This document shows, one piece after another, positions 542 through 40,565 of a stretch of 40,565 nucleotides of DNA. The notes below the pieces were generated by a model. That model was not told where the DNA came from. It did no database searches and was given only the letters and a program-made list of their open reading frames with translations. The number at the start of each line of letters is the position of its first letter. Positions within the stretch are counted from its first letter, which is position 1. Source of the DNA: a virus (taxonomy: Duplodnaviria > Heunggongvirae > Uroviricota > Caudoviricetes); the IMG/VR virus record IMGVR_UViG_2687453529_000006. One strand, given 5' to 3'. The position numbers and the translations under genes were made by a program.

Positions 542-1579
542 TTAACGCTTATCCGCCACCAGTTTGAGCGCGTGTTCCAGCACATTAATGTCTGCACCCG
601 CTTTATGGGCATTTTCACTTAAATAACGCCGCCACTGCCGCGCGCCAGGAATACCCTGGAACAAGCCCAACATATGCCGGGTAATATGGCCAAGATACGT
701 CCCCTGGCTGAGTTCACGCTCAATGTACGGATACATGGCGCGCACTACCGCCACCGGATCGGCATCGGTATCCGAGGAACCAAAGATCTCTCGGTCTACC
801 GCCGCCAGAATACCCGGATTTTGATACGCTTCGCGCCCGACCATCACGCCATCCATATGTTGCAAATGCGCTTTAGCCTCTTCCAGCGACTTGATACCAC
901 CGTTAATCGACATTGTCAGATGCGGAAAGTCACGCTTCAGTTGATACACACGCGGATAATCGAGCGGCGGGATTTCACGGTTTTCTTTCGGGCTTAACCC
1001 CGAAAGCCAGGCTTTACGAGCATGGATGATGAACATCTCACACTCGCCTTTGCCGGAAACGGTGTTGATGAAATCGCAGAGAAATTCATAGCTGTCCTGG
1101 TCGTCGATGCCAATACGCGTTTTCACCGTCACCGGAATCGACACCACATCGCGCATCGCTTTCACGCAGTCGGCAACCAGCTGCGCATTACCCATCAGAC
1201 ACGCCCCAAACATGCCGTTCTGCACCCGGTCAGACGGGCAGCCGACATTCAGGTTGATCTCATCATATCCGCGCGCTTCTGCCAGCTTTGCACACTGCGC
1301 CAGCGCCGCCGGATCGCTACCGCCCAGTTGCAATGCTACCGGATGTTCTTCTTCACTGTACGCCAGATAATCACCTTTACCGTGAATAATCGCCCCTGTG
1401 GTCACCATTTCGGTATACAGCAACGTATTGCGGGAAAGCAGACGCAAGAAATAGCGGCAATGTCTGTCCGTCCAGTCGAGCATAGGAGCAATGCTAAACC
1501 GAGAATTCCAGTAAACACCATTTTTTTCAGGCATCACGCTGGTTTGATTAATTTTTTGTGTTTCATGATTATCGTGCAT
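542..1579 (-). CDS. dusA: tRNA-dihydrouridine synthase A
   Basis: 345-aa translation with the Dus TIM-barrel signature and near-identity to E. coli DusA over most of its length as remembered; the N-terminal ~30 aa appear divergent. Confidence 0.93.
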
Positions 1580-1582
1580 TTT

Positions 1583-1660
1583 TGAACATTTCAGGCTATT
1601 TTTCTCGCGTTAGGTTCCCGCACAGGTTCCCACGTTTTATGGGAACCCGAAATAACGAGG
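1583..1660. other. dusA/integrase junction with GGTTCCC direct and GGGAACC inverted repeats; candidate attL flank or integrase-binding/regulatory site
   Basis: aggttcccgcacaggttcccacgttttatgggaacc lies between the dusA start and the int start. Confidence 0.35.
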
Positions 1661-1667
1661 TCGTGTA

Positions 1668-2765
1668 ATGGCGTACTATAACATAGAGAAACGACTAAAA
1701 TCCGATGGCACACCACGCTATCGCTGTAATGTGATTATCAAAGAAAAAGGGGTTATCACTTACAGGGAAAGCAAAACATTCCCTAAACATGCTCATGCCA
1801 AAACATGGGGCACACAGAAAGTGATGGAATTAGATCTACATGGCATTCCATCATCAAATGCTGTTGACGGGCTTACAGTCCGTGACTTACTACGCAAATA
1901 TTTAAATGACCCAAATGCCGGAGGTAAAGCAGGCCGTACTAAAAGATATGTGCTGGAACTACTTATGGATAGTGACATTTCTGCGATCAGACTATCTGAA
2001 TTAACAGAAAATGACGTAATAGAACATTGCAGGTTGAGAAACAACGCCGGTGCAGGTCCAGCTACTGTTAGCCACGATGTTAGTTATCTTGGCAGTGTTC
2101 TGGATGCAGCCAAACCTGTATACGGAATTAATTACACATCAAACCCAGCAAAAGCCGCTCGTCCATATCTACTTAAACTTGGTTTAATTGGTAAATCAAA
2201 TCGTCGTAATCGTAGACCAGCATCTGATGAACTAGACATGCTCATTGAAGGCCTTCAACAACGATCTACTCATAAATGCTCAAAAATTCCGTTCGTTGAT
2301 ATCCTCAAATTTTCTGTGTGGTCCTGTATGCGAATCGGAGAAGTATGCCGGTTACGATGGGAAGATCTCGACCAGGAACAAAAATCTATACTAGTAAGAG
2401 ACAGGAAAGATCCACGTAAAAAGGAAGGTAACCATATGAAAGTGGCCTTGCTTGGGGAAGCCTGGGATATCGTCCAACGACAACCCAAAAAATCTGAATT
2501 CATTTTTCCATACAACAGCACTTCTGTTACCGCAGGATTTCAGAGGGTAAGAAGCAAATTAGGTATTAAAGATCTGCGATACCATGATTTGCGTAGAGAA
2601 GGGGCAAGTCGCTTATTTGAGGCTGGTTTTAGTATTGAGGAAGTCGCCCAGGTTACAGGGCATCGTTCATTAAACGTGCTATGGCAGGTATATACCGAAC
2701 TGTATCCAAAATCTTTACATAATCGTTTTGAAGAACTCCAAAGGAGCAGAAATAAGACCTCTTGA
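1668..2765 (+). CDS. int: Tyrosine-type site-specific integrase (dusA-associated integrase family)
   Basis: 365 aa; C-terminal catalytic region with R..HDLRR..Y-type motifs (RIGEV..., HDLRREGAS..., YTELY); GAGG RBS; positioned directly at the dusA 5' end. Confidence 0.9.
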   Translation: MAYYNIEKRLKSDGTPRYRCNVIIKEKGVITYRESKTFPKHAHAKTWGTQKVMELDLHGIPSSNAVDGLTVRDLLRKYLNDPNAGGKAGRTKRYVLELLMDSDISAIRLSELTENDVIEHCRLRNNAGAGPATVSHDVSYLGSVLDAAKPVYGINYTSNPAKAARPYLLKLGLIGKSNRRNRRPASDELDMLIEGLQQRSTHKCSKIPFVDILKFSVWSCMRIGEVCRLRWEDLDQEQKSILVRDRKDPRKKEGNHMKVALLGEAWDIVQRQPKKSEFIFPYNSTSVTAGFQRVRSKLGIKDLRYHDLRREGASRLFEAGFSIEEVAQVTGHRSLNVLWQVYTELYPKSLHNRFEELQRSRNKTS

Positions 2766-39034: not shown

Positions 39035-39316
39035 ATGAATACCTTGTTTTTACTGATGGCTGAATTCAATACCCCAAACATTGAACTCTCAGCAGTTAGT
39101 CAAAAATACTTTGGTATGAGTCCAGCCACAGCAGAAGCAAAAGCAAACGCTTGTAAGTTGCCCGTTCCAACATATCGCATCGGCACATCACAAAAAGCAA
39201 AACGTTGCATCAATATTCAGGATCTTGCGGAATATATAGACAAAAGACGAGAAGAAGGACGTATCGAGTGGGAACAGGTCAGAACAGGCAAACAGAAGGG
39301 CAAAGAACATCACTAA
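39035..39316 (+). CDS. PrtN-like small DNA-binding regulator (pyocin-activator/excisionase-like)
   Basis: 93 aa; MNTLFLLMAEF...KLPVPTYRIG... resembles PrtN family as remembered. Confidence 0.7.
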   Translation: MNTLFLLMAEFNTPNIELSAVSQKYFGMSPATAEAKANACKLPVPTYRIGTSQKAKRCINIQDLAEYIDKRREEGRIEWEQVRTGKQKGKEHH

Positions 39317-39576: not shown

Positions 39577-39996
39577 TTACTCATCATCAATAGATGATAC
39601 GCAATATTTATTTTTAAATTTAAGGTTCTTTGGCGTAACTTCATCAGATATATCAAAACCGTCCAGAATTCTATTGAATGTAGCTTCTGGCATATCATCA
39701 TGAACAGAAATCTCACCCGATCGCTGCTTTCTAACCATGTTATCCACTCGCCAAATTATAGCTTCAGCGTAAACAACATAACTTGGATGCTTGATAAAGC
39801 GATGATCACCAGAATTCAAGACGCAAGACGGATCGTGGGGGACACCATCCTTGATACTAGAAATATTAACAACTAAAACACAATAACAATCGTTAACGGG
39901 GTAATAAACAGGATCATTACAAATCACATGAAGATGATTGCATGGCCCAGTTGGGGCAAGCACAGTTCCTTTCCTGTATGGCTGATAATCCGTCAT
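39577..39996 (-). CDS. Unrecognised 139-aa protein translationally coupled to the PanA-like gene (candidate toxin/effector)
   Basis: Start overlaps upstream stop (ATGA); low GC; contains an R-x6-H stretch (RSGEISVH). Confidence 0.6.
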   Translation of the reverse strand: MTDYQPYRKGTVLAPTGPCNHLHVICNDPVYYPVNDCYCVLVVNISSIKDGVPHDPSCVLNSGDHRFIKHPSYVVYAEAIIWRVDNMVRKQRSGEISVHDDMPEATFNRILDGFDISDEVTPKNLKFKNKYCVSSIDDE

Positions 39997-40565
39997 GATA
40001 ATTGCAAAGAAAATTCCTTAAGTTTCTGAGATTCTTCCATTTTGCCAATTATACGATTAGCCTCATCCTCGCTTTTACCCTCACTGATCAGCATTTCTTT
40101 CAGGTCTATAGGCTTACGAGAATTGCCAGAATTATGCCACTCTGGACAAACGCTTTCTAAATGCGTCATGTTTGCGAGATCAAATCGGTTCATATGCCCA
40201 TACAGAGAATAGATTTCATCTAAAATCCGGATATCTGCACGGCTCAACTCATCAAAGACCTCGTCTGCATCCATTTCCCTCGGATCTGAACGCAACAACA
40301 CATCATGCCCGTTCGTCTCTATCAAGTTGTACCAGTAGTCACCAATGCCTTCAGCCTTACCACGAATCAAGTTCAGCGTATTCGACATGACTGGACCAAA
40401 TTTCATAGAGTAAAGACTATCTTCGCCGATCATCCTGCCATGCTTCAAAATCGACTTGCGGTTAGACAGATAGAGCAGCTTCATCAATTTCAGATATGCC
40501 ATGCGCCCACCTCGCTTAAGAAGTAGGTATGCAGCCATTTGAGCTACTTTTTCTTCGCAAAACAT
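39993..40565 (-). CDS. Panacea-domain (DUF4065, PanA/GepA-like) protein, N-terminus probably beyond the window
   Basis: ...AYLKLMKLLYLSNRKSILKHGRMIGEDSLYSMKFGPVMSNT... resembles the Panacea domain core as remembered; ORF reaches the window edge. Confidence 0.6.
   Translation of the reverse strand: MFCEEKVAQMAAYLLLKRGGRMAYLKLMKLLYLSNRKSILKHGRMIGEDSLYSMKFGPVMSNTLNLIRGKAEGIGDYWYNLIETNGHDVLLRSDPREMDADEVFDELSRADIRILDEIYSLYGHMNRFDLANMTHLESVCPEWHNSGNSRKPIDLKEMLISEGKSEDEANRIIGKMEESQKLKEFSLQLS

Follow-up and report, generated by a model that had tools for sequence, protein, structure and literature searches.

Left junction of a lambdoid prophage in dusA of Escherichia coli: a chimeric host gene and candidate arm-type sites of the integrase

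Near the beginning of the viral DNA analysed here, which is referred to in its full length of 40,565 nucleotides as the window, the gene dusA (542-1579, minus strand, 345 aa) stands next to an integrase gene. This raises the questions of where the prophage ends, from which source the start of dusA originates, and what the repeated heptamers between the two genes represent. The initial annotation placed the integrase start 89 bp from the dusA start, which agrees with two divergent genes separated by a gap of 88 bp, the A's of their start codons being 89 bp apart. It also proposed a dusA-integrating prophage with a dusA-type integrase, and this is borne out by the four-way pattern of the attachment sites, the integrase homologs and phage 1720a-02. 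Positions 1430-1670 very probably represent the attL of a lambdoid prophage of about 39.3 kb, similar to mEp460 and 1720a-02 and inserted in dusA. The arrangement at the dusA junction is already known and well documented for the dusA-associated integrase family. Regions past the window were taken from the genome of E. coli FDAARGOS_497 (NZ_CP033850.1), which is 100% identical to the window. Out of 5426 complete genomes of E. coli, 739 contain the dusA-int junction at a coverage of at least 80%.

Attachment core and chimeric dusA gene

The junction comprises the following parts:

542-1475, minus strand: host-derived part of dusA, codons 36-345 and stop codon, assigned by its match to K-12; codons 33-34 and the first part of codon 35 (two bases) belong to the core
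1476-1483: att core TCGAGCAT, assigned by four-way alignment and coordinates
1484-1579, minus strand: phage-supplied 5' end of dusA, codons 1-32, assigned by continuity with free phages and divergence from K-12
1580-1667: region between int and dusA, derived from the phage and representing the P' arm of attP, without relation to the sequence preceding native dusA

Alignment to an unoccupied dusA locus, as suggested in the initial annotation, was carried out with four sites, namely attL from the window, the empty site of K-12 (attB), the attP of phage mEp460, and attR. The empty site and the free-phage attP gave the classic four-way att pattern: to the left of TCGAGCAT, attL equals attB and attR equals attP, and to the right, attL equals attP and attR equals attB. 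This block is the only one that is identical in attL, attR, attB and attP and flanked by switching parentage, and it is therefore regarded as the crossover region. It belongs to the stretch coding for APMLD, a conserved motif in the beta-1 strand of DusA; read on the minus strand, it is ATGCTCGA and encodes Met33-Leu34-Asp35 of the conserved motif APMLDWTD. In the reconstructed attP sequence, the core sits between the inverted hexamers TCCTAT and ATAGGA. Positions 1471-1489 (TCCAGTCGAGCATAGGAGC) match the C. rodentium attB printed in PMC6328086 at 18 of 19 positions.

The far end of the prophage, which had been expected beyond the window with a duplicated core, was found 255 bp past the window end, where attR carries the second core copy (virtual position 40820-40827) and the displaced native 5' end of dusA. 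The prophage boundaries are thereby set by the core at 1476-1483 and by this second copy. The dusA fragment at attR adjoins DUF2713 and zur, is annotated in RefSeq as a dusA pseudogene, and is identical to K-12 in 104 of 104 nt; as the displaced native 5' end, the annotated pseudogene fragment is now explained. The core at both ends, located in the region coding for APM(L/M)D, corresponds to the semi-conserved att repeat of about 21 bp of dusA-associated integrase elements. The 5' end of dusA in the window thus differs from the empty-site allele, and the att site is duplicated at the far end of the element.

The chimeric nature of the gene is apparent from the distribution of differences. That the first 30 or so residues of DusA are odd and the rest close to K-12 had been noticed before, and indeed all 10 amino-acid differences to K-12 lie within residues 3-30, with residues 31-345 identical. 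The host-derived part and the core together contain 13 differences in 942 nt, all synonymous, whereas the first 96 nt contain 19 differences (77/96 identical, 80%), which amount to 10 nonsynonymous and 4 synonymous codon changes in codons 1-32. The phage-supplied 5' end is likewise identical in 77 of 96 nt to the displaced 5' end of the strain itself. The complete protein is recognised in full length by the DusA family models above their curated cutoffs (TIGR00742 with 581 bits, cutoff 397; NF008774 with 560 bits, cutoff 269) and by Pfam Dus with 350-351 bits, above cutoff. Since these models begin at residues 19-30, the conserved core of the family leaves out most of what the phage supplies.

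An unusual N-terminus could also reflect ordinary allelic variation of dusA in E. coli, with the prophage merely adjacent. Naturally different 5' ends do exist in the species, as genomes of the SCU-101 type have an unrelated 5' region and a dusA annotated with 331 aa without containing a prophage. However, the 5' sequence of the window runs unbroken into the genomes of free phages, of which mEp460, 1720a-02 and Lys8385Vzw match only from about position 1475 rightward, a K-12-identical native 5' end is located at the far end of the prophage, and the nucleotide divergence from K-12 leaps from 1.4% to 20% exactly at the core. The four-way alignment thus refutes allelic variation, to which we assign a negligible probability, and the free-phage match and the native 5' end at attR confirm the earlier proposal that the N-terminus is phage-supplied. 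The short allele of the SCU-101 type was additionally considered as the scar of an earlier integration and rejected: its 5' region is simply another one, which shows no similarity to phages, and its core has one mismatch.

As judged by sequence comparison, the crossover is shown to lie in the core, with a chimeric dusA as the product and the native 5' end and promoter displaced to attR. The phage tyrosine integrase (1668-2765) recombined attP with the chromosome inside the 8-bp core, whereby attP brought a look-alike of the first 32 dusA codons and the sequence upstream of them. Because of this look-alike, integration rebuilds a full-length chimeric dusA, in which phage codons 1-32 are joined to the host codons from 33 on, and the native 5' end and its promoter are pushed to attR. 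The intergenic region at 1580-1667 shares 21 of 88 positions (ungapped) with the sequence that precedes native dusA. Both the replacement promoter of dusA and the int promoter are expected in it. No sigma-70 promoter was detected in these 88 bp at the threshold of a consensus scan, and we therefore infer the expression of the chimeric gene from a distant relative, IMEVchUSA3, for which a new promoter supplied by the element has been demonstrated (PMC8409611).

Integrase, probable directionality factor and known relatives

Two genes of the prophage are connected, the second of them probably, with recombination at this site:

1668-2765, plus strand: int, dusA-associated tyrosine integrase of 365 aa, with Pfam Phage_integrase and conserved catalytic residues
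39035-39316, plus strand: PrtN-family protein, likely recombination directionality factor (RDF) and RdfN homolog (PF11112, E 3e-23; PHROG 1300 'excisionase', E 1e-39)

The Pfam domain Phage_integrase (PF00589) covers residues 189-346 of Int (E 1e-20), and the RHRH tetrad and the nucleophilic tyrosine (R222, H306, R309, H332, Y342) are invariant or nearly so among 30 homologs. Int is 99.2% identical to the protein of 1720a-02 and 97.5% identical to that of mEp460. An AF2 model (mean pLDDT 84) has the integrases of Tn1549 and lambda as best Foldseek matches. Out of 80 loci from other species, 54 have the Int homolog upstream of dusA in divergent orientation, and the int-dusA gap is 85-101 bp in the 25 loci whose DusA match starts at residue 1. 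Among characterised recombinases, the shufflon recombinase Rci is given as the nearest to the dusA-associated integrases; for the present protein, second-hand pointers to it are the GenBank note of mEp460, which cites cd00796 INT_Rci, and one phage Int homolog annotated as 'shufflon-specific recombinase'.

The integrase is a member of the dusA-associated integrase family, which was defined together with the dusA-specific islands and prophages and included Escherichia members already in the original survey (Farrugia et al., 2015, PMC4482086). As in the window, its members are tyrosine recombinases encoded divergently beside the 5' end of dusA, the element replaces this 5' end and displaces the original to the far junction, semi-conserved att sites of about 21 bp are found at both ends, and a prtN homolog is present. 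Nothing essential distinguishes the present element from the family; PMC4482086 does not contain arm-type repeats or an N-terminal DNA-binding domain, and the term 'arm-type' occurs 0 times in it.

Among complete phages, the int region is matched most closely at the DNA level by Lys8385Vzw, 1720a-02, SKA5 and mEp460. Phage 1720a-02, or Phi-stx2dact (KF030445), integrates 100 bp into dusA at a core of about 7 bases, its attP formation and its excision, as a circle that leaves native dusA restored, were shown experimentally to be Int-dependent, and the orientation of its int, which borders attL, is termed 'non-canonical' (Balasubramanian et al., 2019, PMC6328086). Besides the nearly identical Int, it has the same attP arm, the same dusA' fragment and int next to attL, but it carries stx2 and was studied in a C. 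rodentium lysogen, whereas the host here is E. coli. Enterobacteria phage mEp460 (JQ182728) shares 95.8% DNA identity over the int-attP region and has all five GGYTCCC sites in identical positions, and downstream of int it encodes a DinI-like protein and a side tail fibre; its dusA' fragment departs from that of the window at about 9 of 96 nt.

In the circular phage, the rdfN homolog is located across attP from int. A PrtN/RdfN-type factor in this position is found in about 64% of the islands carrying dusA-associated integrases. RdfN has been demonstrated as the RDF of a dusA element (PMC8409611), and elements of the IMEVchUSA3 type need a PrtN-type RdfN for excision (Rivard et al., 2021, PMC8409611). 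The Vibrio dusA-specific integrative elements, including IMEVchUSA3, resemble the prophage in this factor and in having int and rdfN on opposite sides of attP, but they are mobilisable islands under IncC AcaCD control and not phages. By analogy, the PrtN-type RdfN of the window would serve as excision factor, and its expression is presumably triggered by the lambdoid early programme. The prophage has retained the two cores as well as int and the rdfN homolog in intact form.

Heptamer repeats on both arms of attP

The repeats GGTTCCC/GGGAACC reported in the intergenic region are present as stated, and we propose them as arm-type sites:

1613-1619, plus strand: proposed arm-type site P'1, GGTTCCC, +137 from the core start
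1625-1631, plus strand: proposed arm-type site P'2, GGTTCCC, +149 from the core start
1641-1647, minus strand: proposed arm-type site P'3, GGTTCCC inverted, +165 from the core start

P'1 and P'2 are direct repeats of AGGTTCCC with a spacing of 12 bp, and P'2 together with P'3 makes up an inverted repeat of 8 bp whose arms are 7 nt apart. Three of the five GGTTCCC copies of the 40.6-kb window are thus found within 35 bp, with about four copies expected window-wide. The other arm has two more copies of GGYTCCC, positioned at -61 and -50 relative to the core start, and all five heptamer copies of the reconstructed attP (916 bp) lie between -61 and +171. In 70 close E. coli relatives, about 20 positions of the repeat region are substituted, all of them outside the heptamers.

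A scan of IMG/VR with the integrase alignment returned only E. coli elements with 90-100% identity; since all matches were close, distant intact attP sites were taken from complete phage genomes instead. The Yersinia phage YeP1 has a different heptamer, GCACCCC, at near-identical positions (-60, -49, +137, +149 and, inverted, +164). Similar positions, with 1-mismatch copies included, were found for C5a (GTCACCC) and for RHph_Y3_1 (GTACGAC), in which the count is only weakly above shuffles, and BcepIL02 and JBD90 (TTGCTAC) have repeats on both arms at looser positions. Upstream of int, the direct-direct-inverted pattern occurs in 34 of 54 loci; among control windows it was seen in 10 of 324, and among shuffles in 15 of 540.

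In the int leader, P'2 and P'3 could pair to a hairpin, as RNA or as DNA, and act for instance in translational control or as a terminator, and not as protein-binding sites. The stem of 8 bp is perfect, the loop has 7 nt, and in locus L005 both arms share a matching T-to-C change (GGTCCCC and GGGGACC). Nevertheless, the fold energy of 1605-1675 equals that of shuffles (z = 0.01), the arms are non-complementary in L006, L007 and L063 (GGCTCCC versus GGGAACC or GGGGACC), and a hairpin leaves the direct copy P'1 and the two P-arm copies unexplained. Given the folding energy, we rejected it as the main explanation and consider it highly improbable.

The repeats might instead be operators of a regulator, or sites of the PrtN-type RdfN, which control the divergent int and dusA promoters. 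They occupy the divergent control region just upstream of int, the inverted repeat of P'2 and P'3 is typical of dimeric regulators, and RdfN is likewise element-specific and could co-vary with its sites; RdfN or another element-encoded protein could thus be the reader of the repeats. For the N-domain of Int, Pfam Arm-DNA-bind_4 matches below threshold and only in a homolog (E 0.065). On the other hand, two copies are located across the core, at a distance of about 200 bp and past the dusA' fragment, and the two-plus-three geometry is kept among phages whose integrases are only 35-68% identical. As this geometry is kept relative to the core, it suits a recombination architecture more than the control of promoters. 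The RDF sites that are known, for example those of lambda Xis, are found on one arm only, whereas the heptamers are two-armed. Taken together, we regard operators or RdfN sites as unlikely.

The repeats look like arm-type recombination sites, to which Int may bind; the earlier guess of integrase-binding or regulatory sites fits the comparative evidence. The heptamers would be bound by an N-terminal beta3-alpha domain of Int, assembling a lambda-like intasome. Lambda attP (P1, P2, P'1-P'3) likewise has its repeats, which are separate from the core sites, divided into two on one arm and three on the other, a small N-terminal domain of beta-sheet plus helix may exist here too, and full-length lambda Int aligns over the whole predicted Int model (358-373 columns). 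Unlike lambda, the N-domain has no detectable sequence similarity to that of lambda Int, heptamers and spacing differ, attP separates int from the RDF gene, and Int binding is a prediction here. N-domain residues and heptamer type show a matching pattern, which counts as a hint only, because it is confounded by shared ancestry and L034 is an exception.

On this basis, we lean slightly towards the view that dusA-associated integrases are heterobivalent lambda-like recombinases with a conserved two-plus-three arm layout (about -60 and -49 on one arm; +137, +149 and, inverted, +165 on the other), that heptamer and N-domain have diversified together, and that Int occupancy couples int and dusA expression. 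As the 88-bp control region between the two divergent genes is taken up by the P' sites, Int bound to them may also alter the transcription of int and dusA.

Implications for dusA and its integrases

The junction is chiefly of use for annotation, since the "odd" N-terminus of DusA is a phage graft, which about 14% of the complete genomes of E. coli carry. No description of an arm-site layout with lineage-specific heptamers was found in the literature searched, and the co-varying arm-site architecture is a modest new element. If the lambda-like view is true, each lineage would have a private intasome code, with a chromosomal target common to all. Provided that Int binds the sites, the minimal attP of a very widespread integrase family would comprise about 235 bp (-61 to +171 from the core start), and naturally orthogonal pairs of arm sites and N-domains would be aimed at one conserved chromosomal target. 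Such pairs could help to engineer integration vectors and to predict which dusA elements cross-excise.

The dusA-int junction and its att sites

The features at the two prophage ends are as follows.

542..1579, minus strand: dusA (tRNA-dihydrouridine synthase), 345 aa
1476-1483: 8-bp core TCGAGCAT
1613 (+), 1625 (+) and 1641 (-): GGTTCCC copies P'1, P'2 and P'3, between dusA and int
1668 (start), plus strand: int ORF, 365 aa
2762..3075, plus strand: DinI-like gene (PF06183), immediately downstream of int
39035..39316, plus strand: PrtN-family protein, homolog of the excision factor RdfN (PF11112; PHROG 1300 'excisionase')
39577-39996, minus strand: 139-aa ORF, function unassigned, overlapping the next gene
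39993-40565, minus strand: Panacea/SocA-like domain protein, last prophage gene before attR
Virtual position 40820-40827, 255 bp beyond the window end: second core copy

The divergent genes dusA and int are separated by 88 bp, with 89 bp between the A's of their start codons, as the initial annotation had stated; the downstream neighbour of dusA is pspG, as in K-12. E. coli FDAARGOS_497 (NZ_CP033850.1) matches window 1200-2000 with 100% identity, and the dusA-int junction is carried by 739 of 5426 complete E. coli genomes (coverage at least 80%). In K-12-type genomes the match stops at window 1582, 3 bp beyond the dusA start codon, with 94.5% identity, while from about 1475 rightward the sequence is found with 95-97% identity in the free phages Lys8385Vzw, 1720a-02, SKA5, mEp460, PhiR40_1 and relatives, and phiSTEC1575-Stx2k.

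Alignment to an empty locus and a search for a duplicated core at the far prophage end had been suggested as checks, and both led to the same 8 bp. Four sites were aligned: attL (window), attB (K-12 BW25113), attP (mEp460) and attR (FDAARGOS_497). On the left of TCGAGCAT, attL has the attB sequence and attR that of attP; on the right, attL goes with attP and attR is identical to attB. Since the parentage switches at TCGAGCAT and phage and host have different bases on either side of it (left AG vs TA, right T vs A), the crossover must lie within these 8 bp. Read on the coding strand, the core is ATG CTC GA (Met33-Leu34-Asp35), within the conserved APMLDWTD motif of DusA, and in attP it is flanked by the inverted hexamers TCCTAT / ATAGGA, as core-type sites should be. 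The right end of the window coincides with the start codon of the Panacea-domain gene, and 254 bp further on the source genome has a RefSeq-annotated 105-bp pseudogene, a dusA fragment, and then a DUF2713 gene and zur, the usual upstream neighbours of dusA; the core-to-core length is about 39.3 kb. Window 1471-1489 matches the published C. rodentium attB for phage 1720a-02 at 18 of 19 positions (PMC6328086).

Judged from these alignments, this is site-specific recombination at TCGAGCAT between attP and dusA, by which the first 32 dusA codons and the upstream region are replaced by phage DNA and the native 5' end is moved to attR. The displaced fragment is identical to K-12 (104/104) and reads MHGNS...APMLDRMYRF, then stop. 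All 10 amino-acid differences from K-12 DusA fall in residues 3-30, residues 31-345 being identical, and of the nucleotide differences, 19 fall in the first 96 nt, while the 13 in the other 942 are all silent. The phage-supplied 96 nt are identical to the displaced 5' end at 77 positions (10 nonsynonymous, 4 synonymous codon changes), whereas upstream of the start codon phage and native sequence are unrelated (21/88). DusA family models start at residues 19-30, so the graft replaces a poorly conserved N-terminal extension and the first beta strand (RFSIAPM), in line with the account that Farrugia et al. gave of the family (PMC4482086).

Some E. coli genomes, such as SCU-101 (NZ_CP048920.1; L004 4241..4500), have another native 5' end of dusA, and the gene is annotated with 331 aa. 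They lack the DUF2713 (yjbL/M) genes and have zur immediately upstream of dusA; starting about 9 bp beyond the core, their sequence shows no relation to K-12. There is one mismatch in their core (TCAAGCAT), and its use as attB might be affected.

Integrase family and excision factor

The int product contains a Phage_integrase catalytic domain with conserved R222, H306, R309, H332 and Y342, and the best matches of its AF2 model (pLDDT 84) are the Tn1549 and lambda integrases. It is 99.2% and 97.5% identical to the integrases of 1720a-02 and mEp460, respectively, and in mEp460 the arrangement of int and the DinI-like gene is the same; a near-consensus promoter of the latter, TTGACA-18-AAAAAT, overlaps the int stop codon. 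Of 80 loci with homologs in other species (Int identity 52-98%), 54 have dusA divergently upstream of int, and in 5 of the remainder the upstream sequence is too short for a decision. Where the DusA match begins at residue 1 (25 loci), the gap measures 85-101 bp. For about 20 homologs (52-66% identity), from Xenorhabdus, Serratia, Providencia, Raoultella and other genera, upstream sequence of at least 1.2 kb is available but contains no dusA (loci without dusA: L026, L030-L032, L035-L039, L041-L043, L050-L052, L058, L059, L064, L066, L081, L082); their targets are presumably other genes, which has been reported for a minority of the family.

The feature is of an already known kind, as is the phage lineage. 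Farrugia et al. (2015) defined the dusA-associated integrases, with 5'-end replacement including the DusA N-terminus, a 21-bp att and excision circles (PMC4482086). Phage 1720a-02 was shown to integrate 100 bp into dusA, with a core of about 7 bases, and to carry a 'dusA-prime' ORF; its attP formation depends on int (Balasubramanian et al., 2019; PMC6328086). In dusA-specific elements, the PrtN-type RdfN serves as the excision factor (Rivard et al., 2021; PMC8409611). As in those elements, the PrtN-family gene, at the prophage end opposite int, lies across attP from int in the circular form. By analogy with near-identical or related elements, in which these properties are experimental, excision would be Int-dependent with RdfN-dependent directionality, and the rebuilt dusA would be expressed from an element-borne promoter. 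The four-site alignment, the phage matches and the integrase family bear out the initial reading of a prophage at the dusA 5' end with a dusA-type integrase and a phage-supplied N-terminus, and the observations behind it (spacing, DusA N-terminus, GGTTCCC/GGGAACC repeats) were accurate in all details.

Heptamer repeats on both arms of attP

Three of the five GGTTCCC copies in the window lie within 35 bp, with about 4 expected by chance over 40.6 kb. The copies at 1613 and 1625 are direct repeats of AGGTTCCC at a distance of 12 bp, and those at 1625 and 1641 make up an 8-bp inverted repeat whose spacer is 7 nt long. An RNA hairpin from this inverted repeat is not supported, as its fold energy equals that of shuffles and in three homolog loci (L006, L007, L063) the arms are not complementary. 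When the prophage's own attP was rebuilt from attR and attL and 916 bp were scanned with up to 1 mismatch, all five matches lay near the core, at -61, -50, +137, +149 and +165 (inverted), with about 0.7 expected in shuffles. In 70 close E. coli relatives, the 70 nt that precede int have about 20 substituted positions, none of them inside heptamers.

A similar layout with a different heptamer is seen in complete genomes of phages whose attP is intact and whose integrases are progressively more distant.

Candidate arm-site heptamers, positions relative to core start (some copies listed for C5a, BcepIL02, JBD90 and RHph_Y3_1, as for YL2 in the text, have one mismatch)
YeP1, Int 68%, GCACCCC: -60, -49, +137, +149, +164 inverted
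C5a, Int 54%, GTCACCC: -91 inverted, -60, +138, +149
RHph_Y3_1, Int 36%, GTACGAC: -60, -48, +138, +148 inverted (count weakly above shuffles, reached in 5/300)
BcepIL02, Int 36%, TTGCTAC: -80, -69, +14 inverted, +124, +147, +159, +174 inverted, +198 inverted
JBD90, Int 35%, TTGCTAC: -81, -70, +85, +106, +149 inverted, +170 inverted

In YL2 (Int 37%, GGTGTGC) exact copies occur on the P' arm only (+147, +159, +201 inverted), with 1-mismatch copies elsewhere, so that this phage supports the layout weakly. A direct-direct-inverted triplet upstream of int was found in 34 of 54 chromosomal loci, as opposed to 10/324 control windows and 15/540 shuffles. The triplet search picked 36 different first-repeat heptamers, and the clearly recurring types include GCACCCC, GTACACC, GGACACC, GTATCCC and GTGCCCC. 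In marine dusA-integrase elements (C5a, L166; also L057-L083), the stretch from the dusA' start to the putative arm sites additionally contains a 10-bp repeat of the TGAATTGCC type in three tandem copies (in C5a at about -110 to -70 relative to the int start); these may bind another factor, and the E. coli element lacks them.

Candidate readers of the heptamers and a possible promoter exchange

The fixed position and the concerted sequence change on both arms argue that the sites are read by an element-encoded protein of the recombination machinery, for which the integrase itself is the simplest candidate. Int residues 1-58 are predicted with high confidence as a three-stranded sheet and a helix, a topology shared with AP2 domains and with the arm-binding domains of the lambda and Tn916 integrases. 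A Foldseek search with this N-domain gave nothing significant, and Pfam Arm-DNA-bind_4 matched below threshold only, in a homolog; the fold evidence for a putative arm-binding domain is weak. Across L005-L084, residues 29-33 (predicted beta strand 3) track the heptamer type (VITYR/GGTTCCC, KYIYR/GCACCCC, KHLHR/GTACACC, KRIYN/GGACACC), with one exception (L034) and confounded by phylogeny. The main rival explanation is that the heptamers are operators of a regulator or of RdfN. On the sequence comparisons we lean towards arm-type sites. As such, Int would bind all five heptamers through its N-domain, and occupancy of P'1-P'3 would influence the divergent int and dusA promoters.

A consensus promoter scan placed no promoter in the int-dusA region. 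The P arm holds a promoter-like TTGACC-17-TAAACT (L001, the source genome, 18877..19139), and no terminator-like site was found between the dusA' remnant and the Panacea/SocA-like gene with its 139-aa ORF, both oriented like the displaced native dusA promoter. It is therefore possible that integration swaps promoters, and the host dusA promoter may be directed into these two genes and a phage promoter into dusA.

The co-varying architecture of the putative arm sites, of which we found no description in the literature searched, is one modest increment over the known dusA elements.
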